Positions 7,533 through 56,944 of a stretch of DNA of 64,000 bases are shown here, in pieces; positions within the stretch are counted from its first letter, which is position 1, and the number at the start of each line of letters is the position of its first letter. Source of the DNA: Candidatus Melainabacteria bacterium 17Bon1m (GTDB taxonomy: Bacteria; Cyanobacteriota; Vampirovibrionia; Obscuribacterales; Obscuribacteraceae); the NCBI GenBank assembly GCA_032128875.1, contig JAVLKG010000013.1:1-64000 (forward strand), given 5' to 3'. The notes below the pieces were generated by a model that made no database searches, had not been told where the DNA came from, and saw nothing but the letters and a program-made list of their open reading frames with translations. The position numbers were made by a program, and so were the translations under genes.

Positions 7533-7549
7533 AACGATGTGGTGTAGTA
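7533..7549. other. 3'-end spaced palindrome, copy A
   Basis: AACGA-tgtggtg-TAGTA, about 10 bp after the T-tract. Confidence 0.7.
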
Positions 7550-7616
7550 GCTTGGCTGCGAAAATCAGGTAGGATGGATTGTAGGGAAGCACCGATCCCA
7601 AAGAGGGGACTTGCTC

Positions 7617-7805
7617 ATGAAACCCATCAGAATTTTGGAAATCGGAGCGTTGATAGGGCTTTTGGTCTTCTGTCTGGGGCTGGTTTTTGGCGGGTCCAAC
7701 AAAGAATCCCAGCAGGGTATTTCCTGGGGTGGTCGACCCACAAATGCGATGGATGCCGCGAGAAATGCGGATACATCTAACTTCGATACTGTTTTGAAAT
7801 TCTAG
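7617..7805 (+). CDS. small membrane protein
   Basis: GAGGGG RBS; single hydrophobic helix. Confidence 0.55.
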   Translation: MKPIRILEIGALIGLLVFCLGLVFGGSNKESQQGISWGGRPTNAMDAARNADTSNFDTVLKF

Positions 7806-7820
7806 AACTGTCGCGGCAAG

Positions 7821-8129
7821 CTAAATGATTATCGTTCTGCGGCTTGGCCAGCCCGCTCCGACAAACTTACATGGTGTCACAAGGTCGATGCGTTGCGGTG
7901 ATGCATCGAATGATTCGCTGAACTCAAGCCTTGATTTCATGCGCTTTTGTGACACGATTTGCGCATCAAGGCAGTCATTTATTTGAGTGATAAGCTCAGG
8001 CACCTTTGGTGAGTCCAGCCCGCTTGCAGCGCGTTTGAACTCATTGATAAAGCTATCGATCATGCCGATTGAAAGTAAGTCGGCTAAAACTTCTGGATCG
8101 CAATTGATGGTGTTTTTGGAAGCGTTCAT
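7821..8129 (-). CDS. hypothetical protein
   Basis: ORF with helical composition filling the gap; no recognisable motif. Confidence 0.5.
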   Translation of the reverse strand: MNASKNTINCDPEVLADLLSIGMIDSFINEFKRAASGLDSPKVPELITQINDCLDAQIVSQKRMKSRLEFSESFDASPQRIDLVTPCKFVGAGWPSRRTIII

Positions 8130-8433
8130 AAACAGAAAGAGCAGAATGCTGGGGTTTGGTTTGGATGCTGATGATAGTATGCCCGAGCGAGATCCCCGTC
8201 CACCGTGGAAATACGACGATAGGCGAAAACCGCAATCACGCGTGGTTTTGCGGAGCGCCGTGGGCCGTATGTTTTGCGTGACGGTCCCACGATATAGGGA
8301 CTAAAAAATTAGGGGTTTTCCTTAGACTTTAGAGCATGCGAAGCCGTGCCCGTCAGCCTTCTTGGACTTTGCGGAACGTAGTGACTGCCCGCCTGGAAGC
8401 GCGCGTTCGGTTTTTGAAATGGAGCGTGGAAAA

Positions 8434-8892
8434 CTAGACTGGTGTGTCAGTCATCCAGGCCCAGAAGCGACACCACCAGCTCGAGCGAACCATCTCAAGC
8501 TTTTCGTTGATGCCTTTCATTTCTAGGTGTGTTTCAGCAAGGTGCAATTCACGCTCGATCAAGAGTGTTCGCAAATCGAGTGATTCTTGCTCAAGCTCTG
8601 GCACTCTGTTAGCAATAGCTTCCACCATCGAAAGAATGCTTGTTTGTTCTTCCAGATGTTCTACTTTGCTTTCCAGATAGCCGATGCGATGCATTGCTGC
8701 AGCCAGTCTGTCGTTTGCAAACTCCAGGCTGGCAAGCACATTCGCCATATTGCTCTGAGAGAGATCTTGCTCATTCAGAATCTGGATTACCTTTTCATCT
8801 TCTTGTTCGAGAATTTGAAAAAAGCTGTCCTGGATGTCTGTTTCCCTCGCTTCGGCTAGCATTGGTGCCAGCGCTTTGGCGGGGTTGTGCAT
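8434..8892 (-). CDS. coiled-coil protein with C-terminal WWxRFWxW motif
   Basis: heptad-like Leu/Glu pattern; C-terminus SWWCRFWAWM. Confidence 0.75.
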   Translation of the reverse strand: MHNPAKALAPMLAEARETDIQDSFFQILEQEDEKVIQILNEQDLSQSNMANVLASLEFANDRLAAAMHRIGYLESKVEHLEEQTSILSMVEAIANRVPELEQESLDLRTLLIERELHLAETHLEMKGINEKLEMVRSSWWCRFWAWMTDTPV

Positions 8893-9095
8893 ATTCTTTT
8901 AGCCCTTTCTAGCTATGTTCTTGGACCGATTTCTGACTTCAATTCGGATTGTGTGTGTGTGAATTGAGCATTTGAAATACTTCATCTGCACCGACATTAT
9001 GCTCCTACGGGCGGTGCCTGTCTAGTGGCACGCGTGATACCACTACTGATGGCATGTTTCGGAAGATTTGGAAAGTTGTGAGTTGTCAATCGGAG

Positions 9096-9551: not shown

Positions 9552-9660
9552 GTCATTCTCCAGACGAGAATGCAAATCATACGACAGTCCAGAAGCGTTG
9601 TAATTGTCCGGACCACGTTTCAGAACATGTGCTGTACGAATGATCGCACCTTTTGGTATA

Positions 9661-9677
9661 TACCATATTAAATAATA
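9661..9677. other. 3'-end spaced palindrome, copy B
   Basis: minus strand TATTA-tttaata-TGGTA after the SLOG-operon hairpin (about 9692-9745). Confidence 0.55.
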
Positions 9678-9766: not shown

Positions 9767-10048
9767 CTAGCCGCGGATGTAGCGACGAATCAGGTCGGCG
9801 ACGTTGCCGACGGTGTCTTCGTTGTTCATGTAGTGGCTGACGCGGAGCAGCGCCTGGGTGTCGCTGGGCTCGTCGGTCATCTCGGGCAGGAGCTTCTCGA
9901 TGCGCGGGCATCCTTCGCAAAGGGCCTTGAGGCGCTCACCGTTGTAACCGGGAAACGAGCCGATCAACCATGCGATCTGGTCGACGTCCATCGCTCCAGC
10001 GTTGGTGTCTGCGTCCTTCAGGGCTTGCTTCAAGCGCTCTTCGATCAT
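9767..10048 (-). CDS. hypothetical protein, last gene of the SLOG operon
   Basis: GAGGA RBS; codon style matches the upstream SLOG genes. Confidence 0.75.
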   Translation of the reverse strand: MIEERLKQALKDADTNAGAMDVDQIAWLIGSFPGYNGERLKALCEGCPRIEKLLPEMTDEPSDTQALLRVSHYMNNEDTVGNVADLIRRYIRG

Positions 10049-13940: not shown

Positions 13941-14022
13941 CGACCACCAAATGAAATTCGTGTCTGATCGTCTTCGCTGGCGGTCATCACGAATGTGTTC
14001 CAAAACTTCAAAGGAGAACATC

Positions 14023-14532
14023 ATGGCAGCACTAGCCCTTCTTTTCGGGCTGTTTCTGGTGGTCTTGCTTGGTATTGCTTCGCTTGCCACCATCCTGGCT
14101 GCGTTGCAGGGTATCTCGCTCGCTCTCAAGGCCGACAAGGCGCTGGCAATTCTCAGCGTCGTGCTGGTTTTCCCTGCAGTCATCTTCGGTGCTGTCTATT
14201 GGCTCAAAGGGAAGGATCTTCCCGGCGATTTCATGGACAGCCTGAGGGAGAAACACCGCAAGGACTCGGGAGAGAACGACCAACCCAAGCCTGACGACCA
14301 TCAGCCCGGCGAACATCAGCCCGGCGAACATCAGCCCGGCGAACATCGCCCCGAAGATCATCAGACGAACGACCACGAGCCCGACGGCAACGGACCCGGC
14401 GCCGGCGGTGGTGATATGCACGACAACGTGGATCATCGCCTCGTCGACAGCGTCAAGCCGCATGCCGACGAACACGACAGACCGTTCGTGAGCGAGGTCA
14501 CCGAAGGCGACCCGATTCCGGCGAAGAAGTAA
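14023..14532 (+). CDS. membrane protein with acidic His/Pro repeat tail
   Basis: AAGGAG RBS; two TM helices; (HQPGE)n. Confidence 0.8.
   Translation: MAALALLFGLFLVVLLGIASLATILAALQGISLALKADKALAILSVVLVFPAVIFGAVYWLKGKDLPGDFMDSLREKHRKDSGENDQPKPDDHQPGEHQPGEHQPGEHRPEDHQTNDHEPDGNGPGAGGGDMHDNVDHRLVDSVKPHADEHDRPFVSEVTEGDPIPAKK
14299..14352 (+). repeat. 15-bp coding tandem repeat
   Basis: CATCAGCCCGGCGAA x3 plus a degenerate copy. Confidence 0.85.
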
Positions 14533-14558
14533 TTCGACGCCTGAGTCATCGGTGAGGG

Positions 14559-14620: not shown

Positions 14621-14637
14621 TACTAAACGGTGTGGTA
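14621..14637. other. 3'-end spaced palindrome, copy C
   Basis: TACTA-aacggtg-TGGTA. Confidence 0.7.
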
Positions 14638-14785: not shown

Positions 14786-15122
14786 AGCCCTTGTGACAGT
14801 GAAATTCGATTATGCGTTGCTAGCTGCGCTAGAGACCAAGCGCCTCTTGTCATCTAAAAGTTTCCCGAGCCCTCCTGTTTGGGCGTCCTATTACAGGCAT
14901 GTTTTTAATCGCAGAGGTGAATTTGCCACCACGATGTATTAGGTTTTCTGCTTAGAAACTGCGTAAGGTAAATCTATCCCGCGTCTTTTTTTCTTTTTTC
15001 GAATCCAAAACCTAACCGACCCAACCCGTTAAGTACACACCTGTTTTCTTGCCTCCGTACACACGGTCGAGAGAACACGTATGGCGTAACGACTGGGTCT
15101 TAGCCCGCCTTGCCAGATCTTC

Positions 15123-15176
15123 GTAGGGAAGGCGCATGCGCCTTCATGATCAGAGAGCCGCATGCGGCTCCCCTAC
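15123..15176. repeat. REP-like palindrome pair
   Basis: GTAGGGAAGGCGCATGCGCCTTC..GAGCCGCATGCGGCTCCCCTAC. Confidence 0.75.
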
Positions 15177-15212
15177 AGGATTGAGCAGGGCTCTGAACTA
15201 TGGGGGTATAAC

Positions 15213-16523: not shown

Positions 16524-17306
16524 ATGTATGCTTCTTTGATTTGCCGTCTCTTCCTCGTGGGAGGGCGGGCTGTCTCGTGCGTGGCGGACTTCCTGGGATT
16601 GGCCGGAGGTGCCGAGGCGAACATCGTTGTTCTGCCTCACGCCTCCAGCGTTCCGGCTGAAGTAGCGCAGGAGTTTGTGGAAACCCTGAAGGCTCTCGGC
16701 GCGGTCGAAGCGAAGATCCGCGTCGTGATGCCTGGGGAAGAGCTGAAATTGGACGGCGTTGACGCTGTCTTCATGCTGGGCGGCGATCAGTCACGACTGG
16801 TCGACTTGCTCGGAAAGGATGGTGTTGCCGAGCTGAAGCGTGCTTTCAAGCGCGGCGTGCTCATTGGCGGAACCTCCGCCGGAGCCGCGTGCGTTGGCGA
16901 GCTGATGATTTCCGGCGGCATGACCGACGGCAGTACGGACGCTTCCACGCTGACGACGCGTGATGGGCTGGGGCTTGCTTCCGGCATCGTCACCGACACG
17001 CACTTCGCGGAACGCAAGCGCTTTCCGCGTCCTCCGGCGGCGATGGATCATGCCCTCAACAGGGGCTTTGGTTTGGTCACCGGGGTCGGCCTCGATGAGG
17101 ACACTGCTGTCTTGATCGAGTTCGGCAAGCGCGGAGCACCGAAATGCACGGCTTACGGCGAAGGTCATGTCTGGGTTTACGAATCCAGCGGACGCAAAGC
17201 GCGCGCCGTGAAACATCGTCGGCATCGCACCGTGGGCAGTGTCAGCGAAAGCAAGTTCTCCAAAGGAGAAAGCTTCCGTCTGAAGCGCGCGCGGCGCATT
17301 CGCTAG
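16524..17306 (+). CDS. cyanophycinase / peptidase S51 family
   Basis: GGDQ, GTSAGA nucleophile, DTHF..R.R, GLDEDTA. Confidence 0.88.
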   Translation: MYASLICRLFLVGGRAVSCVADFLGLAGGAEANIVVLPHASSVPAEVAQEFVETLKALGAVEAKIRVVMPGEELKLDGVDAVFMLGGDQSRLVDLLGKDGVAELKRAFKRGVLIGGTSAGAACVGELMISGGMTDGSTDASTLTTRDGLGLASGIVTDTHFAERKRFPRPPAAMDHALNRGFGLVTGVGLDEDTAVLIEFGKRGAPKCTAYGEGHVWVYESSGRKARAVKHRRHRTVGSVSESKFSKGESFRLKRARRIR

Positions 17307-17396: not shown

Positions 17397-17413
17397 TACT
17401 AAAACGCATAGTA
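17397..17413. other. 3'-end spaced palindrome, copy D (perfect; convergent gap)
   Basis: TACTA-aaacgca-TAGTA. Confidence 0.85.
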
Positions 17414-17608
17414 TAACGAGTTTGAAAACGATTAGGCGAAAAAAGTTTGGTCAAAAACCTTATGAATGCTGGTGGAAGTGCTACAGAGCTCGAAACGTCT
17501 ATAACTTCAGACCACCCACTCAAGGCAGGGCACACATTCAAATTCGTGTGCCCTGCCCGGCAAGTAACATCGCTGCAAATGGCATGGTGACTGGCGTCCT
17601 GATGTGTA

Positions 17609-18022
17609 TCAGGCGCTAATCAACAACCATGCAATCAGCAGATTGGTTAGATGATGCACGTATTGGTCGAAGCCAAGCGAGAGCCAGTACAGCTTCATGC
17701 TGCGCTTTTGCTCGCGAGTGGCTGTCGGCATGTCGTGCGAGCAGAGATTTTTGTAGCGACCCATCATTCGAGGACTTGCTTTGATGCGGTCCATCGTGAA
17801 GTGAATGGCGAAGTCCAAAAGGGCAAGCCACCACATCGACGGATTGACGAAGCAGACAATCGCCAGAGTGCACAGAGCGTGCATCAGGCAGTGCAGCGCC
17901 AGAGGGGCTTCCCATCCGGACGCACTAAACTTGCCCTGCATGTAGTTGTTCTGCAAGACGAAGTCGGCAACGAAGTGCTTCAAGTCGAAGGCGAGCCACA
18001 ACAAAAGAACTGTGGTAATCAT
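17609..18022 (-). CDS. DUF3307-family membrane protein
   Basis: HFVADFVLQ, LHCLMH, HFTMD, GFDQYVH. Confidence 0.85.
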   Translation of the reverse strand: MITTVLLLWLAFDLKHFVADFVLQNNYMQGKFSASGWEAPLALHCLMHALCTLAIVCFVNPSMWWLALLDFAIHFTMDRIKASPRMMGRYKNLCSHDMPTATREQKRSMKLYWLSLGFDQYVHHLTNLLIAWLLISA

Positions 18023-18464
18023 TATCTTGCGTCCACGTTGTTTCGAGGCGCCTTGTTGCAGGAAGCGCACGTTTGCGCCTTCCCACACACGAGCTTTCGC
18101 GTCATTCGTTTCCCTCAGTTTGCATTCTTCACTGCGACAGGTTCTCTCGCTGGCAGGCGAAATGACTACGAATAGTCTGCCTGCACTTTTCTGTGCGCGA
18201 GATTGCTGTGGTAATTGCGGAGAAGTTGTGCTGGAGGGCCTTAAAAGAACGAATGAAACAAGACGAGGTCTACAAATTAGGACGTTCGTGCATGCAGTTC
18301 AACCGAAAGAGCCCAGCAATTGTCACTCTTTACATTCTGTCGTGTTTCAAAAGGCTCTTCACCGCCCATTATTGAAAAACTTGCGCAGTTTGATTGCGTT
18401 TCATTTTGCGGGCTGAAATTTGAAAACAACCTATTCCAGCTCGCGCGATATCCAAACCGAAGCT

Positions 18465-19100: not shown

Positions 19101-19344
19101 CGAAAAGCACCACTTCCTGGCAATCTCGCTGCCGAGATCATGTCAATATAAATTGACGCCGACGTCTGCTAAATACCCTGCCCACTCACTGTCAATACAT
19201 AGATTATACGTGTCTGAGAAAACTCTCGTGCCTCATGGCATCCGTTCGCTGTAAATCGCATGCTCGTGATGAAGCAGCGCCTCCCGTGCGGCGTTTGTTG
19301 AAAGGCTGTAAGAAGAAATTCCAAGCCTAAGATCAAGCGCTGTC

Positions 19345-19361
19345 AATTATGGTTTATAGTA
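19345..19361. other. 3'-end spaced palindrome, copy E
   Basis: minus strand TACTA-taaacca-TAATT. Confidence 0.65.
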
Positions 19362-19491: not shown

Positions 19492-20100
19492 CTACTTCTT
19501 CGCCTTTTTCGAGCACTTGCAGTCGTGCTTCTTACCGTTCTTCTTGCCCTTTTTGTTTTTCTTGTGCTTCTTGGAGCACTTGCACTTCTTTGACTTCGGC
19601 TTGTCTTCAGCCTTGGGCTGCGTCTTGTCTGCGGTCTTGGCCGGCGCATTTTCTTCGCCCTTGCCATGCGCTTCGCCGTCGCATGCGACACAGTAGTCGC
19701 TGAGCTTCGGCTTAACGACGGTGCCATCTTCCTTTGTGCCGACCGGAATCTTGATGCCTTTGGCATCAACCGCGACGTAAGTCGCCTCCGCTTCGGTGAC
19801 CTGAATGATTTCGCCGCCGCGATTGACCTCCACACGAATCTTCGTGGTGATCGAGGTCTTGCCGATCTTGACGATGTCCGCCCAGCAAATGAGCAGGTCG
19901 CCGCGCAGAACGGGCTTCTTGAAGATGACCGAATCCATCGCCACCGTCACCACGCGACCAGGGTGTGCCTGGCGCGCGGCGATAGCGCCGGCGATGTCGA
20001 TCTTGGAGAGCAGAACCCCGCCGAAGATGTTGCCGGACGGATTTTCGTGCTCGGGCATCATCAGTTCGACCAGGGAGGGACATTTAGCTTTCGCTTCCAT
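19492..20100 (-). CDS. hotdog-fold acyl-CoA thioesterase with Lys/Cys-rich tail
   Basis: NPSGNIFGG, VVTV, FKKPV..GD, GKTS, TYVAVD. Confidence 0.88.
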   Translation of the reverse strand: MEAKAKCPSLVELMMPEHENPSGNIFGGVLLSKIDIAGAIAARQAHPGRVVTVAMDSVIFKKPVLRGDLLICWADIVKIGKTSITTKIRVEVNRGGEIIQVTEAEATYVAVDAKGIKIPVGTKEDGTVVKPKLSDYCVACDGEAHGKGEENAPAKTADKTQPKAEDKPKSKKCKCSKKHKKNKKGKKNGKKHDCKCSKKAKK

Positions 20101-23184: not shown

Positions 23185-23901
23185 ATGATCGACAGCAATA
23201 AAAAATACCTGGTTGTGGCTCGCCACGGTCAGTCCTTTGCCAACCGGCGTTTGAAGAAAGAAAAGAACGGCATCAAGTATTCGCTGGCCGGCTCTGACGC
23301 TTCAATCGGTTTGACGGCGCGCGGCAAAAACCAAGCTCGCAATAGCGGCAACAAGCTTCAGTCCCTCTTCTTCGGGGAGAATCGCTTTCGCCGCATGTAC
23401 GCAAATCGATTCGAGCGTGTTCGCCAGAGCGGTCGCCTGATGCGCTCGCGCTTCGACTATTCCGTCGAATGCGTCGAGGACAAGCGGCTCGAAAAGCGCA
23501 GCTACGGTGTCTTCTGGAATCTCACGTATCGCGGTGTGCAAGAGCTGTACCCCGACGAGTACGCGATCTTTCAGGCGCTCGGACCGCTGCGTTATCGTCC
23601 GCCCGGCGGAGAGAACTACAACGATCTCTTCGAGCGCGTGGAAAACTTCTGCGATGAAGAGGCGCTTGTGTCCTTCGAAGGCAACCAACTTGTCGTCACG
23701 AGTTCTGCCGTCATGCTCGCTTTCCGCCGGCTTTACGCTGGTTTGAAAGACGCCGAGCTGGTCGAGATGTATGAAAACATGCATATCGGCAACGGTGATT
23801 TCGACGTCTACGAGTTCGACGAACAGTTGGGCACGTGGAAGTTGAAATACATCTACGCCTGCAAATTTGCCGGTCGCCCTCAAGCGTTCCGCGCAGCATA
23901 A
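23185..23901 (+). CDS. histidine phosphatase (PGM family)
   Basis: ARHGQS, LT..G..QA, R..QS, RPPGGEN; the usual second catalytic His reads VTSS. Confidence 0.85.
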   Translation: MIDSNKKYLVVARHGQSFANRRLKKEKNGIKYSLAGSDASIGLTARGKNQARNSGNKLQSLFFGENRFRRMYANRFERVRQSGRLMRSRFDYSVECVEDKRLEKRSYGVFWNLTYRGVQELYPDEYAIFQALGPLRYRPPGGENYNDLFERVENFCDEEALVSFEGNQLVVTSSAVMLAFRRLYAGLKDAELVEMYENMHIGNGDFDVYEFDEQLGTWKLKYIYACKFAGRPQAFRAA

Positions 23902-24020: not shown

Positions 24021-24037
24021 TACTAAAAAGGGTAGTA
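24021..24037. other. 3'-end spaced palindrome, copy F (perfect)
   Basis: TACTA-aaaaggg-TAGTA. Confidence 0.85.
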
Positions 24038-24212
24038 AGAATTGACGCTGTACGTGTTGCGTGCTACACCTGCTGGAGAGGACTTTGAAAATGTCGAAAA
24101 CGATTCGAGCGAGTTCTGGCTTAATCTACAGTCGAACTATGAAATTGCGATGCTCGACTACACGGGCGAAAGAGATAGAATTTGCAGTGAAACTCGCCAA
24201 CTTGCCTAGTCA

Positions 24213-35406: not shown

Positions 35407-35423
35407 TACTAGGGTATGTCGTA
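35407..35423. other. 3'-end spaced palindrome, copy G
   Basis: TACTA-gggtatg-TCGTA. Confidence 0.7.
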
Positions 35424-38249: not shown

Positions 38250-38266
38250 TACTACATCAAGTCACA
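38250..38266. other. 3'-end spaced palindrome, copy H (one arm only)
   Basis: TACTA-catcaag-TCACA at the expected position after TTTTG. Confidence 0.4.
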
Positions 38267-38660: not shown

Positions 38661-40124
38661 ATGCAACCCAATGATGACAAGGACGCTCAATGGCGCCCTA
38701 AGATAGCCGCGGAAAAACGCTGGCCTGTATTCGGTTCGCTGATGTTGGTGATGCTTTTGGCAGCGATGGATCAAACCATCGTTTCCACTGCAATGCCGCG
38801 CATCATCGGCGAATTGCAGGGACTCGACCACTACTCCTGGGTGGCGACGTCGTACCTGCTTCTCTCGACTGTGACTTTGCCCCTCTACGCCAAACTCTCC
38901 GACGTCTTCGGGCGAAAGAGAATTTTGCTGTTCGGCGTGATTGTGTTCTTAATTGGCTCCGTTCTCTGCGGCTTCGCCCAGACGATGATGCAGCTGATTC
39001 TCGCGCGTGGCTTCCAGGGTATCGGAGCTGGAGCGCTTATGCCGATCGTTATGGCGACGATGGGTGATATGTTCAGCCCTCGCGAACGCGGGCGGTATCA
39101 AGGATTCGCAGGCGCAGTCTTTGCATTTTCGTCAGTCGCCGGTCCTTTCCTGGGCGGTTTTATCACCGACCACACGAGCTGGCGATGGGTGTTTCTCGTC
39201 AATTTACCGCTCGGCTTCATCGCCATGTTCGCGCTGATGCGCCTCATGCCTTCGTACGCAAGTGCGAAGTGGAAAGACGTCAGAATCGACTTTGTCGGCG
39301 CGGGCTTCCTCGTTGTGGGATTGACTTCGCTGTTGCTTGGTTTTACGTGGGCCGGCGTTTCGCTGCCCTGGACGTCACCAGTGATCATCGGCTTGTTCGC
39401 GGCGTTTGCCGTGAGCTTGGTCGGCTTTGTCGTAACCGAGCTGAAGGTCGCTGACCCGATTCTCGAGCTGCGTTTGTTTCGCAACGAAATCGTCTTCGTG
39501 TCCATGCTCGTGACGCTGTTGACGAACGCTGCGATGATGTCCGGCATCTTCTTTCTGCCGCTATTCATGCAGGAAGTGCTGGGACAGTCTGCTTCGGACA
39601 GCGGCACTGTGATGACGCCGATGATGATTGCGCTCGTGATTGCGAGTACGATTTCGGGGCAGTTCATCACGCGAACCGGACGCTACAAGCGCAATGCGAT
39701 GCTTGGTTCTGTCATCCTCGTTGCAGGCACCGTGCAGCTTTTGTTCCTTGGCGTCGACTCGACGACCTGGAATATCACGCTCGCGATGATCACAATGGGT
39801 CTCGGAATTGGCGTCGGCTCCAGTCTCTACACCACGGTTGTTCAGAATGCGGTGAAACAAACGCAGATGGGACAGGCGACTGGTGCCGTGACGCTGTTCC
39901 GTCAGATTGGCGGTACGGTCGGTTTGGCGCTGTTCGGCTCGATGGTGAGCACGGCAACCATCGGTGGCGGTGCGGCTAAGCTCGCATTTGCTGCTGCGCT
40001 GCATCATGTGTTCATCGGTGTTGTCGCGGTGGCGGGTCTTGCGATGGTGGTTTCGTGGTTCCTCAAGGAAATCCCGTTGCAGAGCCGTTCTGACGACGAC
40101 CCGCCGCCTCCGCCCGTGCACTAA
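38661..40124 (+). CDS. MFS drug:H+ antiporter, DHA2 (EmrB/QacA) family
   Basis: DQTIVSTAMP, KLSDVFGRK, RGFQGIG, WRWVFLVNLP; about 14 TM. Confidence 0.92.
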   Translation: MQPNDDKDAQWRPKIAAEKRWPVFGSLMLVMLLAAMDQTIVSTAMPRIIGELQGLDHYSWVATSYLLLSTVTLPLYAKLSDVFGRKRILLFGVIVFLIGSVLCGFAQTMMQLILARGFQGIGAGALMPIVMATMGDMFSPRERGRYQGFAGAVFAFSSVAGPFLGGFITDHTSWRWVFLVNLPLGFIAMFALMRLMPSYASAKWKDVRIDFVGAGFLVVGLTSLLLGFTWAGVSLPWTSPVIIGLFAAFAVSLVGFVVTELKVADPILELRLFRNEIVFVSMLVTLLTNAAMMSGIFFLPLFMQEVLGQSASDSGTVMTPMMIALVIASTISGQFITRTGRYKRNAMLGSVILVAGTVQLLFLGVDSTTWNITLAMITMGLGIGVGSSLYTTVVQNAVKQTQMGQATGAVTLFRQIGGTVGLALFGSMVSTATIGGGAAKLAFAAALHHVFIGVVAVAGLAMVVSWFLKEIPLQSRSDDDPPPPPVH

Positions 40125-40254: not shown

Positions 40255-40271
40255 TACTAAAAAAGATAGTA
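40255..40271. other. 3'-end spaced palindrome, copy I (perfect; shared by convergent units)
   Basis: TACTA-aaaaaga-TAGTA, extendable to TATACTA-N7-TAGTATA. Confidence 0.85.
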
Positions 40272-40413: not shown

Positions 40414-41013
40414 TTACCAGTTTTTGAAACCGGAGAATATGCCGGTGAAGAACCCGCGAGGATTCAAGACCGGCTCGGAGTCGACCTTCACGAAAGACGT
40501 GTGCGGCACCGAAGTCACATCCAGCTTCGCAAGATTGCGGTTGCGCGCGGCGTTGGACTTGCATGCAGTCTGCGCGACGACAGCCAACTTCTCCGCCTCG
40601 TTGATGAAGTGCTCAGCGCACTTCTCCAGGTTGATGGCGAGCTGCTGGCGAGACGCCACGGCATCCTTGAGCACGAGAGTCGACTCGTAGGTGCCGAAGG
40701 GGCGCTTGCCGCTGTCACGCGCCTCGGTCTTGAGGCTGTGGGTCAGCATCAGGTCGGCGTAAGCCGACAGATCCAGACCATCCGGCAGCGTGACGGCTAT
40801 CCGCTCGGGAGCCGGGCTGTTTTCGTCCGCCATCTGACTTGCCGCAAGGGCAAGCTCTTTGGCGAGCAAGGTAGCGTTGCCGCTAACGATGAGAAGGCCC
40901 ATCGACTTCAAGCCGACGACTTCCAGGCAGGCTGACGTTTCCATCAGCACTTGAGCAAGGTCGCTTACGCGCTTCAGCACGATAGCGCCGCGACCGGGTT
41001 CAGTTATATTCAT
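40414..41013 (-). CDS. hypothetical protein
   Basis: GGGAG RBS; co-oriented with the ClpP-like gene. Confidence 0.72.
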   Translation of the reverse strand: MNITEPGRGAIVLKRVSDLAQVLMETSACLEVVGLKSMGLLIVSGNATLLAKELALAASQMADENSPAPERIAVTLPDGLDLSAYADLMLTHSLKTEARDSGKRPFGTYESTLVLKDAVASRQQLAINLEKCAEHFINEAEKLAVVAQTACKSNAARNRNLAKLDVTSVPHTSFVKVDSEPVLNPRGFFTGIFSGFKNW

Positions 41014-42270: not shown

Positions 42271-42287
42271 TACTATGCAATGTCGTT
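42271..42287. other. 3'-end spaced palindrome, copy J
   Basis: minus strand AACGA-cattgca-TAGTA after a T-tract. Confidence 0.7.
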
Positions 42288-42453: not shown

Positions 42454-42666
42454 TTAGCTCTTCGACTTGGACTTCTTCTCCGCAGGCTTCTTGCCCGAGG
42501 TCTTCTTGTCCTTGTCGTGGAGCGCCTTGATCAGTTCCGCATCCTTGTTGCGGAAGTACATCTCTTCGCGAGCGTGCGAGAGAGCTGCGATGCCGTTCGA
42601 ACCACTGCTCGCGTCGCGGGCAGCCTCGTGCTCGGCCTTCATGGTGTCGATGGTCTTGTTAGTCAT
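42454..42666 (-). CDS. 70-aa helical protein with EExYFR motif
   Basis: AGGAGG RBS; AREEMYFRNKDAELIKAL; Lys-rich tail. Confidence 0.75.
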   Translation of the reverse strand: MTNKTIDTMKAEHEAARDASSGSNGIAALSHAREEMYFRNKDAELIKALHDKDKKTSGKKPAEKKSKSKS

Positions 42667-42828
42667 GGTGAACCTCCTGTGTGGAGCGCATCCATGCGTC
42701 CACGGTTTGGGTTGCATTAGCAAGGCGTATTGCACGCGCCCTGCTTCATTCCGTTGCATGGAGTGCACCCGGTTGCCCAGACGCACTCCATGTCGATGGG
42801 GAATTCGCTGGAGAGCTAGCAGGCTAGC

Positions 42829-45082: not shown

Positions 45083-45424
45083 GCGTCGCCGTCGGCTAGT
45101 CAGCCGATAGTTTGTGAACTTCATCTGAAGCCGAAGGCTTTAGGCAACAGATGATTTGTACTCGGCACTGGCGCAAACTGATGATTCGTCGTCGGTTTCG
45201 CACAGTGCCGAGATTTTGGTGAGCCGGAACTCCGCCTTCGAGTTTCGGCTTACCTTTTCTTTTCTAGATTGGCTCTTTTGAACTCTTTCGAACCGTTTCG
45301 AAGCTTTTTCGAGCCTATCTAGCCCCTGTTCGAGCTTTTTGCTCCGTTTTCGAATTGCGCATATCGCTCGATTCTCCGACGTTATGCGCCCTTCAAAGAT
45401 GCAGCAAAAATTTTGAACTATGCT

Positions 45425-45441
45425 AACTATGGTCGGTAGTA
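45425..45441. other. spaced palindrome, copy K
   Basis: AACTA-tggtcgg-TAGTA, 343 bp after the small gene and 60 bp before the next gene. Confidence 0.65.
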
Positions 45442-45500
45442 AATCTTGACTACCGTGTCGTGCAAGACCAGCACGGCAATAGACTAGAGGAAACGCAAAA

Positions 45501-47627
45501 ATGAGCGCCAACAATTCCACGACCGCTCAGAGCCCCCCGAAGGATTCTGAGTGGTTGGATGATATGCCGCAGCCCTACCTGGCTGTGAATCCGAATCATC
45601 CAAGATTGGCGATCAAGCACCGGAAGCTTTTCTTGCTCGTCGACACCGAAGGAATGGTGCCGGGCAAGAACGAGCAGGGATTTGGCTTGTTTGCCGATGA
45701 TACGCGCTGGTTGAGCAAGTGGGACATGTCGCTGGGCGGCTTGTCTCTGCTGCCGCTTAATCGCAACGTCGACGAGGGCTTTGCTGCCCACTTCGTCTAC
45801 GCCAATCGCGCCTTCCCCGGCGCAGTCGAGCAGAGCATCAAGGTCGACCGCGAGTTGGTCTTGAACGATGCTTTGATCGAACGAGTAACTGTCACCAACT
45901 ACAGCCAGAAGACAGTCGAAACGGAGCTGGCGGTTGTCGTCGGCTGCGATTTCGCGGATATGTTCGAGGTGCGCGGGGCCAACAGACCCAAGCGCGGAAC
46001 CCTGCGCCGTCCAGTTCTTCGTGGCAATCGACTGACGCTGGGCTATGTAGGACTCGACAATGTGCTGCGCGAGACGTCGATTCTTGTCCGCACAAGCACG
46101 CAGAATACGACCGTCGGCTTCGATGATCGCATGCTGCGCGTGCCTCTCACGCTGAAGCCTGGCGAGCCGGCGTCTGTCGAGTTCGTCGTGCGCGCTCGTG
46201 TGAATGGCAAGTTCGACATCGCGCGTACACCGCGTTCGTTCGAGCGCGAAATTGCTTCTGCTCGCAAAGCTTATAGCAACTTCGTCGCCACGACCGGTTC
46301 GGTCTCGACGGACAACCCGCAGTTCAACGCTATCTTCGCGCGTGCGCTTCGCGATATCTACATACTACGGCAGGAAAGCCCGCGCGGCAACGCTATTGCT
46401 GCAGGCGTTCCGTGGTTCGCCGTGCCGTTTGGACGCGACTCTGCCATTACTGCGCTGCAGACGGTGCCATTCATGCCGGAAGTCTCACGCGATGTGCTGC
46501 GTGTGCTTGCTGCCTATCAGGGCGAGAAGCACGACAAAGTTACAGCGGAGGAAGCCGGCAAGATCATGCACGAGCTGCGCACCGGCGAGATGGCACTTCT
46601 CAAGGAAGTGGCATTCCGTCCCTATTTTGGAACCGTCGACGCCACTCAGCTCTGGCTGATGTTGCTCGCCGAGTACGTACGCTGGACCGGTGATCTCGCG
46701 CTCGCGAAGGAGCTTTGGCCCAATGTCGAACGCGCTCTGGCTTTTCTTGAGGCTGCCACTGCAGGCGGTTACATCCGTTATGGTGGTGTGGCGGGCGAGG
46801 CTCTGAGCAACCAGGGTTGGAAGGACTCCGGCAACTCCATTGTCTTCAAGGATGGAACCCTCGGCAAAGCTCCGATCGCTGTCTGCGAAGCGCAAGGCTA
46901 CTTGTACTCCGCATGGAAAGGCATCGCTACCGTCGCGCGCCAGCTCGGCAAGTGGTCGCTTTGCTTCAAGCTTGGACAGCGCGCCGACAAGCTGCGCGAC
47001 GCGTTCCAGAAGGATTTCTGGATGCCGGAGCAATCGTTCGTTGCCATCGCTCTCGACGGTGAAAACCGCCAGTGCGATGCTGTTTCGTCCAATCCTGGTC
47101 ACTTGCTCGGCACTGGCATTCTCACGCCGGAGCAAGAAGCAGCGGTTGCGGATCGGCTGATGGCGCCTGATATGTTCTGTGGTTGGGGCATTCGCACTCT
47201 CTCGAGCAGCGAGCGCGCCTATCAACCGATGGACTACCAGGTGGGCGCAGTCTGGCCGCACGACAATGGCTTTGCCATCGAAGGACTGGCGAAACTCGGT
47301 AGGCATGCTGATGCGCACCGTGTCTTCGAAGGACTGATCGCGTCCGCTTCAGCGCAGAGTGATTTGCGATTGCCCGAACTCTTCGCTGGTTTCGACCGCG
47401 CCGGACACAAAGAGCCTGTTCGCTACCCGGTTGCTTGCGTCCCGCAAGCCTGGGCGGCTGGCAGTGTTTTCCAAATCATCAAAGCTTGTCTGAACATGCA
47501 GCCCAATTCGAAGACCGGCACAATCGACTGTGGCGGCGCTTCAATGCCTGCTTGGCTAGGTCAGGTTGTGGTGAAACGGATTCAGGTCGGCGACAAGAAA
47601 GTCGATTTGCATTTGCCTTTGAACTAA
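45501..47627 (+). CDS. amylo-alpha-1,6-glucosidase / glycogen-debranching-like glycosidase
   Basis: DTRWLS, DFADMFEVRG, AGVPWF..FGRDS, GKIMHE, NQGWKDS, WPHDN, LPELF, PQAWA. Confidence 0.9.
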   Translation: MSANNSTTAQSPPKDSEWLDDMPQPYLAVNPNHPRLAIKHRKLFLLVDTEGMVPGKNEQGFGLFADDTRWLSKWDMSLGGLSLLPLNRNVDEGFAAHFVYANRAFPGAVEQSIKVDRELVLNDALIERVTVTNYSQKTVETELAVVVGCDFADMFEVRGANRPKRGTLRRPVLRGNRLTLGYVGLDNVLRETSILVRTSTQNTTVGFDDRMLRVPLTLKPGEPASVEFVVRARVNGKFDIARTPRSFEREIASARKAYSNFVATTGSVSTDNPQFNAIFARALRDIYILRQESPRGNAIAAGVPWFAVPFGRDSAITALQTVPFMPEVSRDVLRVLAAYQGEKHDKVTAEEAGKIMHELRTGEMALLKEVAFRPYFGTVDATQLWLMLLAEYVRWTGDLALAKELWPNVERALAFLEAATAGGYIRYGGVAGEALSNQGWKDSGNSIVFKDGTLGKAPIAVCEAQGYLYSAWKGIATVARQLGKWSLCFKLGQRADKLRDAFQKDFWMPEQSFVAIALDGENRQCDAVSSNPGHLLGTGILTPEQEAAVADRLMAPDMFCGWGIRTLSSSERAYQPMDYQVGAVWPHDNGFAIEGLAKLGRHADAHRVFEGLIASASAQSDLRLPELFAGFDRAGHKEPVRYPVACVPQAWAAGSVFQIIKACLNMQPNSKTGTIDCGGASMPAWLGQVVVKRIQVGDKKVDLHLPLN

Positions 47628-49031: not shown

Positions 49032-49048
49032 AACGACAAAAGGTAGTA
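49032..49048. other. 3'-end spaced palindrome, copy L
   Basis: AACGA-caaaagg-TAGTA. Confidence 0.7.
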
Positions 49049-50783: not shown

Positions 50784-51755
50784 ATGGTTTCTCATGTTTC
50801 TGATTCTTCCTTTCACCCAGACCCGCGTGAGACAGGCAAAGACAGTCTCGCTGACCAGGTTCTTGCGAAGCTTCAAGATGAATCCCTAACTTCAGCATTC
50901 AATTTTATGAAGTCCTCCGTGCAAAATGTGTATGCCGGCCGAGATGAAGACCACGACGGTGTGCTCGATTTACGCGACAGACGCGATGATGTCCCGATGA
51001 ACGATAAGGAAAAGCAGGAGTTCTGGACGTCGCTGTCAAAGGAATTGGAAGAGAAAAGACCGGGAGTTCTGAAAAATCTTTCCGCTGTTTGGCTCAAAGA
51101 TTTTAAAACCACTGAATTGAAAACGATGCCGTTCGAAGCTGACTACGTTCAGCAAATCGCAAACAACGGCAAGGCAATGAACAAGACATTTGCCGGTGAA
51201 GCGCTAAAAGATCTGCCCAACATCAAAGCTCTCAACCGCAACGATGACATTATTGACGACATCGAATTAGACAAAAACATTCAAAGACAAAAGCAAATTC
51301 CACGCGAGCAGTTTGTGACCGACATCATCAATAAAGCGCTTACAGACAGCCAAACGAGCCCGCTTAAGGCGGTAGATGCGATTTATGCATCGCTCAAACA
51401 AAGAGGGCAAACTGAAACTCAGGCTGAAAGAGTAGCTTCATTTGCCGCAGTCGCTGACGCATTGAAAGAACATCCGGACCTGGCTGCGAAGCTCTCGATG
51501 GGTTACATGCAGCGCAACTTCAAGGATGTAGACACTAACTACGGCGAGCACAAAGAGGACTACAGAATCTCCAAGGAAGAGCTTAACGACTTCACTCCAG
51601 ACAGCATTGGAAAGGTTTTTATCAACTACGTGAAAGCTAACTTCGACTCAATTGCCAGCACATCGACCTACGACAAATATCTGAATTCACAGAATTTGAC
51701 TGCTGACGAATTGAACAATCACATCAACCGCTTAAAGCGTAAAGGCGGGAATTAA
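50784..51755 (+). CDS. hypothetical acidic protein with EF-hand-like loops
   Basis: DEDHDGVLD, NDDIIDDIEL, ISKEEL, LTADEL. Confidence 0.75.
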   Translation: MVSHVSDSSFHPDPRETGKDSLADQVLAKLQDESLTSAFNFMKSSVQNVYAGRDEDHDGVLDLRDRRDDVPMNDKEKQEFWTSLSKELEEKRPGVLKNLSAVWLKDFKTTELKTMPFEADYVQQIANNGKAMNKTFAGEALKDLPNIKALNRNDDIIDDIELDKNIQRQKQIPREQFVTDIINKALTDSQTSPLKAVDAIYASLKQRGQTETQAERVASFAAVADALKEHPDLAAKLSMGYMQRNFKDVDTNYGEHKEDYRISKEELNDFTPDSIGKVFINYVKANFDSIASTSTYDKYLNSQNLTADELNNHINRLKRKGGN

Positions 51756-51816: not shown

Positions 51817-51833
51817 TACTATAGCATGTGGCA
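51817..51833. other. 3'-end spaced palindrome, copy M (convergent gap)
   Basis: minus strand TGCCA-catgcta-TAGTA between two terminator hairpins. Confidence 0.5.
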
Positions 51834-51927: not shown

Positions 51928-52770
51928 TTAGCCGAGACGACGCTTGGTCTCTTTCTCGGCAAGTTCGGACAGCTGCTTTATCTCGTTGAAGATGATGTCC
52001 GTCGCAGCGTCCAAGTCGTCCGGAAGGTCTGCAAGCGGAATCGGCTTCCCGAAGGCTACTGTGGCACCGAATGTGGTTTCGTTGAACCAGTCCGAGAACC
52101 AACGAATGCCGAACATTCGCGCTATCCTGAAGAGGATCGTGGCATGCTTCGAATCACGATCGTAGTAGATGCCGACAGGCAGCACCGCGAAGGGCAGTTC
52201 GCTCTTCTTGGCGGCATGCTTGCCGATCATCAACGCTCCGGCGAAGAAGTCTTCGCGGCGCAGCGTGTTGTCGCGGATCAGGCGACCTTGGGGAAACACA
52301 ACGAGAGAGCTGTCTTTCTCCGCGCTCATTGCCCGCATCGCTGTGCGAACGGCGGCGGAGGGGTTGCGGTCGTGATGCACGGCGATACCGCCCAGCCAAG
52401 CTGCAAACGGTGCTCGCAGCGCGGTTATCTGGTTGATCGCCATCAAGAAGCGAAAGTGCATCGTGCCGAAGACAGCTGTGACGAGAACCGCGTCCTTTTC
52501 AATCTGGTGGTTGGGCAGCATGAGGAGCCGCCCTTTGAACTTCAGGTTCTCTTTGCCGATGATAATCAGCCGACCCACGCGCAGCCACAGTGCGAAGCGT
52601 CCGATGATGAGTCGCGTTGCACGCGCCCACCACGAGACTTTCGGTGTCATGTAGCCCGGTTGCAGGAGCTTCTTACCTTCGTTGATCCAGTAGCGCACTC
52701 GCACGGCGGCGAGTATGCCGGCGAGCAAAACGGCGCCCGCAATCGCGAAGAGCAGGTGAGTTGTTGTCAT
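51928..52770 (-). CDS. PlsC-like lysophospholipid acyltransferase
   Basis: NHQIEKD (HX4D), FPQG, VLPVGIYY, FGKPI; N-terminal TM. Confidence 0.88.
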   Translation of the reverse strand: MTTTHLLFAIAGAVLLAGILAAVRVRYWINEGKKLLQPGYMTPKVSWWARATRLIIGRFALWLRVGRLIIIGKENLKFKGRLLMLPNHQIEKDAVLVTAVFGTMHFRFLMAINQITALRAPFAAWLGGIAVHHDRNPSAAVRTAMRAMSAEKDSSLVVFPQGRLIRDNTLRREDFFAGALMIGKHAAKKSELPFAVLPVGIYYDRDSKHATILFRIARMFGIRWFSDWFNETTFGATVAFGKPIPLADLPDDLDAATDIIFNEIKQLSELAEKETKRRLG

Positions 52771-52837
52771 TTTTTTCTCGTTTTTGAGCCACGGCAAAGG
52801 AGGGGGCGAAAGTGCCCCCTCCGGAATGCGCCTGTGG

Positions 52838-54535: not shown

Positions 54536-55589
54536 TTCATGGGTAATGCTCGCCTCACGCTGGAACGCTGTGCGTTCTCACATGTGTGAGCGTGAGAGGG
54601 AGCGGCGTTCTTTGAGAAACGCGGAAATGTCGAATGCCCGGCCACATCGCAAAGCGTCCTTCGCGAAGTGAAACCAGACCAAAACACACTCGCCAAGCCG
54701 CTATCGCAAACGCGACTTGCAAGCTCATCGTCCTGAAATCAACCTCATCTCAAAAAACGCGTTCTCCAACAACGGATATAAATCCGGTGCGTTTGAGCGT
54801 TTGAATTCGACTGTGGTTTACTCGGGAACGATTTCTTGGAGTGTGTGGAAAAGAAAGACGTTTACTGTCTACCAGCGTGCGCTCTATGTCTCCAACATAA
54901 TGGTTAAGCTACTAAAAGATTCGGAAAGCCTTATTTGTTGAGCTTTTAGGCTGCTATCTCCAAAACAAATAAAAATGGTGTCTAACTCATAATTGTCAAG
55001 ATGTGCAAGAACTAAGGCTGCAGCCACCTTTTCAGTGGCGCGTCTCGCGCGAATTTTTAGCTGCACTTAAGGTGAAAACGCGTTTGAGCCGTTGGTTTAG
55101 CGATGGTTGGTTGCGCAAGCGGAAAGTGGTCTGGTGAGTCAGGTCTCAAGTGGCACCATCAATTCAAAATTGGAACTCTTAGCGCCGCGATTTTGAGAAG
55201 AAAATTGCAAAACTGAAGACCCGTAACGTAAATGCGAACCCTTTCGAGCGGTTTCGCGCTACCTGCGCTACTGCGATTATCACGGCTTTTCGAGGGTTTT
55301 CACTGTTGTGAAGAGACAACTAATGATACGCCAAGTGGTTTTGCCCGCAGAGCGATCAACGGTCTTTGTAGGTTTCCCCTATCCCGGTCACTTCCAATTC
55401 CAACTTCCCGTCAGTCCTTTTCCGAACCCACGTCAATTTAAAGCGCATGTTCTCTCAGCTCGAAGGCTGTGTTGAGGGCGCACGTGATCGAAAAATGACT
55501 GGCAGCACCGGGACGATTCTTCCCTTGCAAGCGGTTCATGAGCCGTTTGCACAACGACGAACCAGAATTCGTCACAGGAGAAAACCATA

Positions 55590-56693
55590 GTGAGCAATTC
55601 CAAAGTCATCCCGACCGCCGCCTTCGCTCTCGACCTCCTCAAGCAGGAAGTCGCCGCCAAACCGGGCGAGAACGTTCTTGTTTCGCCGCTCTCCGTTTCG
55701 CTCGCCCTCGGCATGACCGCCAACGGCGCGCGTGGCACGACCCTCAAGGGCATGACCAGCGTTCTCGGCATCGAGAGCGATCTGGGCGCCAACAACAAGG
55801 GCTACGCTGCCCTTCTGGAGCTGCTGAAGCGTTCCGGCATCGGTGTGACGCTCGACATCGCCAACGGCATTTTCGCCAAGCTCGGGGTCACATTCAAGCC
55901 CCAGTTCAAGCAGGCGAACAAGCGCTACTTCAACGCCAAGCTCGAGGACCTGGATTTCGATGATCCGGACACCCTCGACATCATCAACGGCTTCGTCTAC
56001 GAGGGCACCAACAAGAAGATCGACAAGATGCTCAAGTCGATCAGCCCGGACGCCGTGATGTTCCTCGTCAACTGCGTCTACTTCAAGGGCGAGTGGACCT
56101 CGAAGTTCGACAAGAAGCTGACCAAAGATCTCCCCTTCGCCGGCGTCGGTGACATCGCCACGATGTACCGCAACGATTCGATGGTTTACAGCAGTGACTG
56201 GCAGACATATCAGACCGTCGTGCTGCCGTTTGGCGAGTCCAAGGCTGTCCGTGAGGTCATCATCCTGCCTTACGAGGGCAAGAGCATCGACGACGTGCTT
56301 GCCGCGCTCGATGCCGATAAAATCCTGGGCTTCACCAAGCACGATCACGGCAGCGACGGCGAGCTCTGGCTGCCGCGCATCGACATCGGCTACGAGAATT
56401 CGCTCAAGGACTCACTCATCAATCTCGGCATGGAAGACGCCTTCGGCGGCGCCGATTTCACCGGCATGTCCGAAGACCTCGACCTCAAGATCGGCGACGT
56501 GAAGCACCGCACCGGCTTCAAGCTCGACGAGGAAGGCGCGGAAGGCTTCGCCGCCACTGTCGTCGAAGTGATGACCGAGAGCGTCTCGATGCCCTTCCAG
56601 ATGAAGGTCAATCGTCCGTTCGTGAAGTTCACCATCGACTCCGAAACCGATGCCGTGCTCTTCGCCGGCGTCGTCGTCAACCCGACGAAGTAA
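55590..56693 (+). CDS. serpin family protein
   Basis: NVLVSPLS, NCVYFKGEW, DEEGAEGFAAT hinge, VNRPF, LFAGVVVNP; AGGAG RBS. Confidence 0.93.
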   Translation: MSNSKVIPTAAFALDLLKQEVAAKPGENVLVSPLSVSLALGMTANGARGTTLKGMTSVLGIESDLGANNKGYAALLELLKRSGIGVTLDIANGIFAKLGVTFKPQFKQANKRYFNAKLEDLDFDDPDTLDIINGFVYEGTNKKIDKMLKSISPDAVMFLVNCVYFKGEWTSKFDKKLTKDLPFAGVGDIATMYRNDSMVYSSDWQTYQTVVLPFGESKAVREVIILPYEGKSIDDVLAALDADKILGFTKHDHGSDGELWLPRIDIGYENSLKDSLINLGMEDAFGGADFTGMSEDLDLKIGDVKHRTGFKLDEEGAEGFAATVVEVMTESVSMPFQMKVNRPFVKFTIDSETDAVLFAGVVVNPTK

Positions 56694-56927
56694 TTCCGTC
56701 GCTCTGGAGAGTCGGCTGCCATCTTGGTAGTCGACTCCCCTTGCGGGTTGAAATGCTTGCGGGATGAAATGCCTGCGCGTTGAAACGCTCTTTGGGAGGC
56801 GCAGGAGTCGTGGCGTAACGCCATGGATTCTTGCGCTTTCCAATTTTTTTGCCCATGCCTGCCCACTTCAGGCAGACAATTTGTGAAATATCGGGTGCTC
56901 CCCGTTATTTCCTTTTGTGGAATGGGT

Positions 56928-56944
56928 AACTATATGATATAGCT
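56928..56944. other. 3'-end spaced palindrome, copy N
   Basis: AACTA-tatgata-TAGCT after TTTTG, just before the IS1595 transposase. Confidence 0.55.

Follow-up and report, generated by a model that had tools for sequence, protein, structure and literature searches.

We analysed the first 64,000 nucleotides (nt) of contig JAVLKG010000013.1 of Candidatus Melainabacteria bacterium 17Bon1m, a member of the Obscuribacterales among the uncultured relatives of the cyanobacteria, hereafter the window, in which genes on both strands are followed at their 3′ ends by copies of a spaced palindrome, TACTA-N7-TAGTA (Table 1). An initial annotation, made from the letters of the window, had listed 14 such copies behind functionally unrelated transcription units, and had offered three explanations for them: a recombination site for mobile gene cassettes, a protein roadblock or insulator that reinforces termination, or a promoter. 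Here we follow the element through the source assembly (GCA_032128875.1, hereafter G000; 7.55 Mb in 35 contigs, with the window at C13:1-64000), through a congener (G032), and through two relatives that are each assembled as a single contig, one from another genus (G016; 5,037,910 bp) and one of 6.7 Mb (G048). Genes were called with a simple home-made codon-model caller rather than a standard gene finder, and those of the window were checked with Pfam.

The initial observation is confirmed. The perfect palindrome occurs three times in the window (at 17397, 24021 and 40255) and is matched in none of 100 dinucleotide-preserving shuffles, and when up to two mismatches are allowed there are 20 matches compared to a mean of 3.77 and a maximum of 10 in the shuffles. 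We built a weight matrix from the sites found throughout G000 with at most one mismatch and ran it genome-wide, as the initial annotation had proposed. All 14 listed copies score between 9.4 and 24.3 bits, the weak ones being those at 38250, 49032 and 56928, and one good copy, at 58068, had not been listed. At a threshold of 9 bits the window holds 18 hits, compared to about 1.3 per 64 kb predicted from the rest of the genome, where the rate outside the motif-rich compartment described below is 19.9 per Mb. One hit in the window, at 88, corresponds to an insertion-sequence end.

The architecture of the element is rigid in its arms and free in between. The spacer is fixed at seven, with 23 exact sites in G000 compared to 0–4 at each of the other spacings from 0 to 15, and apparent classes with spacers of ten and four proved to be by-products of the TA-rich borders around the N7 sites. 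No two spacers are alike, whether copies are compared within the window or genome-wide, and the base 3′ of TAGTA is not conserved (T in a fraction of 0.34 of the sites). As single-stranded DNA the three exact sites fold at only −0.9, −1.8 and −2.6 kcal/mol, and the element is thus not a folded structure.

What sets the sites apart is their position relative to intrinsic terminators. The initial annotation had placed most copies shortly behind the T-tract of a terminator hairpin, and this holds genome-wide: among the 78 sides of G000 sites that bear a T-run, the run ends 9–13 nt before the arm in 62 and exactly 11 or 12 nt before it in 45, and in G016 it ends 10–12 nt before the arm in 41 of 104 sides. 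Just upstream of the run, 75% of T-rich sides (n=122) fold at −12 kcal/mol or below, compared to 31% of T-poor sides and 30% of shuffles. The T-run lies on whichever side faces the 3′ end of a gene, so that a site in a convergent gap is flanked by a T-run to its left and an A-run to its right, and those at 9661, 19345 and 42271, which face minus-strand 3′ ends, show an A-run on the plus strand. The copies at 17397, 40255 and 51817 do lie in convergent gaps, as had been claimed, according to our own gene calls and Pfam. Counting stringently, with a terminator defined as a hairpin plus T-run and a site accepted with at most two mismatches at 14–33 nt from the start of the run, 43 of the 145 terminators inside the G000 compartment carry a site (41 of them at 14–24 nt) compared to none of 443 outside it. 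By context, 39 of the 43 divide into 20 of 88 tandem and 19 of 52 convergent terminators, which are similar rates. We also looked for another type of motif behind the terminators outside the domain and found none.

The same picture emerges from the gene context. For the 107 compartment sites with at most one mismatch, 38 lie in convergent gaps, 60 in tandem gaps (36 between plus-strand and 24 between minus-strand genes) and 2 in divergent gaps, with one in coding sequence and six at contig ends. Expressed per gap at the same threshold, sites are found in 38/145 convergent, 59/628 tandem and 2/175 divergent gaps of the GC-rich compartment of G000, compared to 2/530, 1/1757 and 9/819 in the rest of the genome. 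For the G016 stretch from 2.34 to 3.10 Mb the numbers of sites are 52 (80 convergent gaps), 48 (287 tandem gaps) and 10 (109 divergent gaps). This is a 3′-end element, with a distribution opposite to that of a promoter.

The sites are restricted to one part of the chromosome, which lay beyond the view of the initial annotation and changes what the element may be for. In G000 they lie on contigs or parts of contigs with a GC content of about 53–54% and are all but absent from those of about 49%; motif density partly defined this compartment when it was first outlined, though classification by GC content alone gives the same picture, with 99 sites in the 1.62 Mb of 25-kb windows at or above 0.51 GC compared to 31 in the 5.90 Mb below. 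Mean GC content at third codon positions (GC3) of genes is 0.622 inside and 0.512 outside. In G016 the sites fill a single block from 2,410,236 to 3,068,451, at whose left border GC3 steps from 0.41 to 0.54 and at whose right border it steps from 0.58 to 0.47. The block contains dnaA (2,832,383), the classic arrangement yidC-jag | dnaA-dnaN, and the minimum of the cumulative GC skew at 2.83 Mb, with the sign of the skew remaining constant for at least 230–270 kb past both borders. All 11 matches in G048 to the T-run-coupled pattern defined below lie at 1.675–3.024 Mb, with dnaA at 2.581 Mb, and the dnaA gene of G000 is found on the motif-rich contig C7. The genes near the replication origin (oriC) of G016 have their best G000 matches mostly on motif-rich contigs, and 266 of 982 compartment proteins match the G016 region 2.34–3.10 Mb compared to 104 of 982 other proteins. 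The compartment is thus a domain around oriC. Its gene content differs widely between genera, and it includes ordinary core genes, such as those for release factor 2, TrmD, adenylate kinase, ribosomal protein S18 and DnaJ; it is thus an old chromosomal domain rather than contamination or a recent island. The domain itself, sharply bounded and with a GC3 about 0.11 above that of the rest of the chromosome, is seen in two genera.

For a survey of further genomes we used the exact palindrome with a T-run 9–13 nt before it, since a count of the exact palindrome against the reversed pattern is insensitive (23 compared to 18 in G000). Of the two Obscuribacterales families, one has this T-run-coupled pattern in 26 of 30 sampled genomes and the other in 2 of 2, up to 55 times compared to 0–3 times for controls. 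The remaining nine families of the class do not rise above background, and neither do 200 further genomes from the phylum. Near-complete genomes with the pattern include G016, G048, G036, G013 and G008. It is not universal in the order: G043, G047 and G045 have 0–1 matches, and the 400 kb around dnaA of G043 contain no dominant spaced palindrome, only chance-like sites. A dnaA hit is missing in 13 of the 61 genomes of the order, though their completeness is 82–92%, so a bin without the motif is often just one from which the domain is missing. It seems that binning loses the origin domain, probably owing to its different composition.

We next asked what has been retained at those sites of G000, 30 in number, for which the neighbouring genes could be located on one 400-kb contig of the congener G032. 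The orthologous gap holds a site with at most two mismatches in 29 of 30 cases, compared to 71 of 600 shuffles, and with at most one mismatch in 15 of 30, compared to 4 of 600. Identity is 92% in the arms (266/290), a value inflated by the choice of the G032 site as the best match to the consensus, and 54% in the spacer (110/203), with 290/696 in the near flanks; the flanks range from 41 to 45% except for the T-rich distal flank at 62%. The contrast between arms and spacer appears too large to be explained by that choice, and non-consensus arms (TCATA, TCGTT, TGGCA and TACTG) are likewise retained in G032. In four alignments with congeners, the three sites that could be read (14621, 17397 and 24021) retain their arms in three to five of these genomes, whereas spacer and flanks are altered. 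Judged by these alignments, the half-sites are under purifying selection. Two invariant half-sites, a free spacer and the lack of a fold together indicate that a dimeric protein binds the element as duplex DNA.

These properties suggest a mechanism. The 17-bp element would be bound as duplex DNA by a dimeric, sequence-specific protein that contacts two 5-bp half-sites with centres 12 bp apart and leaves the spacer free. The sites stand 11–12 bp past the last T of intrinsic terminators, with one terminator beside them in a tandem gap and two in a convergent gap, where a single site is placed exactly midway between the facing terminators. A polymerase that has not been released at the U-tract would meet the bound protein with its active centre still on the last U residues, and could be detained at that point until the hairpin sets it free. 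The transcription units of the domain may each in this way be insulated from its neighbours, in a lineage for which no Rho RNA-binding domain was found in either G000 or the single-contig G016. Escherichia coli elongation complexes stall 14 nt upstream of bound EcoRI-Gln111, according to one report (PMC5499547); given the distance of 11–12 nt, a polymerase stalled in this manner would have its RNA ending on the final residues of the U-tract. Roadblocks can also combine with canonical termination to delimit units, as stated in a review (PMC10310618). Among the three options of the initial annotation, roadblock or insulator is the one that best fits the anatomy, owing to the fixed distance to the T-run, the single sites centred between facing terminators, the conservation of arms while spacers drift and the near-absence from divergent gaps; the other two are not supported. 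We therefore tentatively favour, while granting it somewhat less than an even chance, that the sites bind a putative dimeric protein behind terminators which acts as a two-way barrier to transcription.

Several observations weigh against this preference. A barrier does not explain why no terminator outside the origin domain has a site, nor why some complete relatives (G043, G047 and G045) lack the motif. About 7 of the 107 sites, for example those at 45425 and 58068, have no T-run on either side. No candidate for the binding protein was singled out among the domain proteins that we checked. The part played by motif density in outlining the G000 compartment and by best-match choice in the G032 identities, both given above, belong on the same side.

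The search for the binding protein covered the neighbours of dnaA in G016, where no candidate was found; a 147-residue protein nearby is 74% conserved, though it is hydrophobic and resembles a membrane protein. Pfam applied to 88 of the 93 one-locus domain proteins shared with G000, the other five being covered by an earlier scan, returned TetR, ArsR, CsoR, OmpR and treble-clef candidates, of which none stands out. The best MerR_1 hit of both G000 and G016 is encoded inside the domain and is specific to the order (20/32 genomes compared to 0/119). This protein (G000:C5:191.7-193.5 kb; G016 L020:14789-15634) has a nearly invariant MerR-type N-terminus, a short stretch that looks by eye like a coiled coil, a conserved C-terminal domain and a proline-rich linker of very different length (281 compared to 612 residues). 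It seemed an attractive candidate for the binder, but its conservation is just as high in genus g5, for which no motif was found, and this weakens the case. A member of the same protein with a nearly identical helix-turn-helix occurs in G009, which has no T-run-coupled matches, and G043, a congener of G009, has no motif within 200 kb of dnaA.

The restriction to the origin has no obvious reason under a transcription barrier, and would be natural for a centromere-like or compaction system. The sites could accordingly form a protein-binding array that marks, compacts, tethers or segregates the origin domain or loads SMC without ParB-parS, with placement behind terminators serving only to keep the complexes clear of RNA polymerase and promoters. 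The strict confinement to one contiguous oriC domain in G016 (2.41–3.07 Mb, with dnaA at 2.832 Mb), the clustering around dnaA in G048 and the position of dnaA in G000 agree with this. No ParB N-terminal domain (ParB_N) was found in G000, in G016 or in any of the 32 genomes of the two families, while ScpB is present, and the canonical parS consensus gave no hit in G016 at 2.34–3.10 Mb and only three in G000, all with two mismatches and outside the compartment. ParB is, however, scarce in the whole class (27/151 genomes, mostly weak hits), so that its absence is not specific to motif-bearing genomes and is uninformative. Precedents exist in RacA-ram and RicO-ricS, but the site numbers here, 116 near-perfect in G016 and about 150 in G000, exceed any of them. 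The sites are conserved individually, which suggests a local rather than a collective role; the peak at 11–12 nt is a mode and not merely a lower bound; and divergent gaps, though equally untranscribed, are almost empty. We consider a role mainly in domain organisation rather unlikely, though a serious alternative. The two functions are not mutually exclusive, and a single protein behind many terminators of the origin domain might be both a bidirectional barrier and a domain mark, replacing ParB-parS and Rho, with the GC3 excess of 0.11 a consequence of compartmentalisation. Such a system would have no counterpart described in bacteria; this combined proposal we regard as doubtful. Positive supercoils arising at 3′ ends, above all between convergent genes, could also be removed there, if the sites were preferred by gyrase, topoisomerase IV or a supercoil-sensing nucleoid protein. 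REP and BIME elements (repetitive extragenic palindromes and bacterial interspersed mosaic elements) bind gyrase, GapR accumulates at 3′ ends, and the density of our sites at 3′ ends is highest in convergent gaps. GapR is reported to be a sensor of DNA topology that modulates topoisomerase activity (PMC13408042). Conserved half-sites around a free spacer, however, resemble a classical dimeric regulator site, neither the fixed distance to the T-run nor confinement to the origin domain is expected of supercoil relief, and tandem and convergent terminators carry sites at the similar rates given above, which together make a topological role quite improbable.

Mobile elements bear on the remaining explanations. 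One insertion sequence has an end exactly 16 nt from a palindrome-like site (0–3 mismatches) at 7 of 7 copies, and its opposite end abuts terminator T-runs, as it does at positions 1–113 of the window; the interior of the insertion sequence is not in the G000 assembly. In G016 another repeat lies 14–26 nt from sites at 4 of 5 copies. At least one insertion sequence uses the motif as a safe harbour. The same insertion sequence, with its terminal inverted repeats, breaks many contigs of G000 (C3, C7, C8, C14, C23, C35, C5 and C15); an end copy on C15 was considered and found to have no transposon, its neighbours being PKD and sulfate-permease genes. A second repeat family is found at the ends of C8, C13 and C35, adjoining terminator T-runs at two of the three copies (C13 and C35).

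This proximity of mobile elements could be read as support for the proposal that the sites are recombination or insertion points which build an array of mobile gene cassettes, as could the wide variation of domain gene content among genera and the fate of adjacent gene pairs in G016, where homologous pairs are still adjacent in 0 of 3 cases across sites and in 22 of 38 across other gaps of at least 80 nt, numbers too few to count. A palindromic crossover site, however, would flank both ends of a cassette and occur in divergent gaps, and our sites, which do not fold, adjoin 3′ ends only; every spacer is different, which exchange by a tyrosine recombinase does not tolerate. The checks that the initial annotation had attached to this option also went against it. 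Gene order across four sites is intact in at least four congeners (G032, G066, G057, G067 and G063), with sites kept in orthologous gaps at the rate given above, and none of the eight Phage_integrase hits in G000 (on C9, C2, C32, C3 at about 1.0 Mb, C1, C4 and C17) lies in the compartment. The cassette proposal is largely refuted at genus depth, and we give it very little probability. Least probable of all is that the element is a promoter, possibly bidirectional, with the T-run or TTG as −35 and TAGTA as −10, or a device for recapturing polymerase after termination. For this reading, the T-run side in tandem gaps always points toward the next gene, many sites have A-rich sequence and ribosome-binding sites after them, and the copy at 45425 is conserved 60 nt before a start codon. 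Against it, divergent gaps, in which promoters must occur, are nearly devoid of sites in G000 (2/175 compared to 38/145 convergent) and hold few in G016; moreover, T follows TAGTA too rarely, the implied spacer from TTG to TAGTA is about 19–20 nt rather than 17 ± 1, and the arms on both sides are equally conserved. We reject this reading, and return to the transcription barrier as the preferred one.

Table 1. Copies of the spaced palindrome and an insertion-sequence end in the window (T-run and A-run distances are to the nearest arm; hairpin energies in kcal/mol)
Position	Strand	Feature and matrix score	Setting	Terminator side and conservation
1..113	+	insertion-sequence end (terminal inverted repeat)	abuts terminator T-run	
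7533..7549		AACGA-N7-TAGTA, 11.6 bits	behind terminator of + gene 6809-7483	T-run ends 10 nt before arm; upstream hairpin −23.3; site kept in orthologous G032 gap
9661..9677		TACCA-N7-TAATA, 14.2 bits	faces 3′ end of minus-strand open reading frame (ORF) 9767-10048	run on right side, 11 nt away; hairpin −21.6
14621..14637		TACTA-N7-TGGTA, 17.4 bits	after + gene 13951-14532	arms retained, spacer altered in G032, G066, G063
17397..17413		exact site, 24.3 bits	convergent gap 16524-17306 (+, peptidase S51) / 17609-18088 (-, DUF3307)	T-run 12 nt before arm; arms retained with other spacers in G032, G066, G057, G063
19345..19361		AATTA-N7-TAGTA, 13.9 bits	faces 3′ end of minus gene 19492-20100	run on right side, 10 nt away; hairpin −12.4
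24021..24037		exact site, 18.9 bits	after + gene 23185-23901	arms retained in G032, G057, G063
35407..35423		TACTA-N7-TCGTA, 13.3 bits	behind terminator of operon ending 35298	hairpin −20.8; T-run 8 nt before arm
38250..38266		TACTA-N7-TCACA, left arm only, 9.8 bits	after + gene 36755-38179	hairpin −26.3; T-run 11 nt before arm
40255..40271		exact site, 23.4 bits	convergent gap 38661-40124 (+) / 40414-41013 (-)	central between left T-run and right A-run, 11 and 12 nt off; right-hand hairpin −26.6
42271..42287		TACTA-N7-TCGTT, 11.5 bits	faces 3′ end of minus ORF 42454-42786	non-consensus arm TCGTT identical in G032
45425..45441		AACTA-N7-TAGTA, 11.9 bits	60 nt upstream of debranching-enzyme gene 45501-47627	no terminator; T-run on neither side
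49032..49048		AACGA-N7-TAGTA, 10.0 bits	behind strong terminator hairpin	hairpin −23.4; T-run 8 nt before arm
51817..51833		TACTA-N7-TGGCA, 13.2 bits	convergent gap 50784-51755 (+) / 51928-52797 (-)	runs 10 nt off on both sides; right-hand hairpin −27.1; identical arms in G032
56928..56944		AACTA-N7-TAGCT, weak, 9.4 bits		T-run 11 nt before arm
58068..58084		CACTA-N7-TAGTA, 13.5 bits	extra site	T-run on neither side

The copy at 45425 differs from the others in what is conserved around it. Its 17 nt, arms and spacer alike, are almost fully conserved in four relatives (L001, L002, L003 and L007), with single changes only, and it is possibly an operator-type use of the same site. In the surrounding stretch (window 45300-45520) an A5T4GA block before the site and a TCTTGAC block after it are both conserved in the four relatives, and the 9 nt that separate the A5T4GA block from the site vary among them. 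Beside the site at 24021, about 450–550 nt present in G032 and G057 are missing at window 24038-24212, and G066 has about 940 nt more; of a small pair of genes, apparently no more than the ends are left in the window. An IS1595-family transposase gene, identified with Pfam, occupies window 56972-57889 and begins 28 nt past the weak site at 56928.

Sequencing runs add nothing on transcript ends. The contigs of the runs labelled RNA-Seq (X2-X4) span genes on both strands and the four sites examined, as do those of the DNA run (X1). Breaks specific to the RNA-labelled runs occur only at 10.3–10.5 kb and at 17527-17554, the latter within a perfect GC-rich hairpin without a U-tract (window 17525-17558) that follows a minus-strand gene; here the RNA-labelled contigs break, with adapter letters in X2, and the DNA run is continuous. 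At window 14299-14343 short unitigs of high depth break the contigs of all four runs, DNA included, which suggests a repeat or strain variant inside ORF 13951-14532. Loose contig ends are found in all four runs at 15176, with an inverted joint to 7001, and a repeat of about 55 nt at 15120-15180, just before an MFS gene, recurs on many G000 contigs and also in relatives. A 43-nt intergenic stretch at 19200-19243 is 90–95% identical in G032, G057, G040 and G063 in surroundings that cannot be aligned, and may represent either a regulatory site or a small RNA. Elsewhere in G000 there are two hits to RpoB domain 6 (C10:32000-33196 and C9:262382-263578), of which the second scores lower, lies in an open frame of 1615 residues and may be a paralogue, a fusion or contamination.

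The element can be compared with several known systems. At RNA polymerase I terminators a T-rich element is followed by a bound protein, and other roadblocks are formed by general regulators in yeast and by LacI or EcoRI-Gln111 in bacteria. Our sites are like these in having a T-rich release element and then a specific site, for which binding is predicted, at the distance of a polymerase footprint; they are unlike them in that the site is symmetric, serves two facing terminators and is confined to one chromosomal domain. A literature search found no bacterial genome with such a site on a large share of its intrinsic terminators, and no description of the motif or of terminator-linked palindromes in these bacteria, with subscription journals outside its coverage. 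Like the sites of ParB-parS, RacA-ram, RicO-ricS and MatP-matS, the element is a short specific motif that occurs only in a domain spanning several hundred kb around a replication landmark. Those systems have about 9–25 sites compared to 116–150 here, and none is known to be coupled to terminators: RacA has 25 ram sites in about 600 kb, lying inside genes, and RicO has 9 ricS sites in about 700 kb, ricS not being a palindrome (bioRxiv 10.64898/2026.03.06.710092). Nor does the motif match the canonical parS consensus.

REP and BIME elements resemble ours in their extragenic location at the 3′ ends of units, in their scarcity in divergent gaps and in serving insertion sequences as targets. A REP element is a stem-loop of 20–40 nt whose stem is conserved; it is part of a transcript and owes its spread to a RAYT transposase. 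Here, in contrast, the arms are 5 bp, the spacer is free, the sites hardly fold, follow the T-run and are conserved at orthologous positions, and the only Y1 transposase hit in G000 is a weak partial one (25.4 bits, on C12, outside the compartment). Integron attC sites, long imperfect palindromes whose single strands fold, are similar in that one site stands at the 3′ end of each unit; unlike them, our element is a 17-bp site that does not fold, has no integrase nearby and accompanies units in both orientations and in syntenic order.

If the sites are indeed barriers, bacteria would be able to build protein roadblocks routinely into their terminators, a principle that to our knowledge has so far been known only from eukaryotic RNA polymerases, and the proposal would provide a testable answer to how read-through is contained in lineages that lack Rho. 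If they instead organise the domain, a class largely without ParB would have a dense mark of its origin domain, and one that shows how such a mark can coexist with transcription. Practically, the origin domain seems to go missing from many metagenome bins. Either way, a sharply bounded origin domain with its own composition and its own 3′-end signature is a new feature of these genomes.

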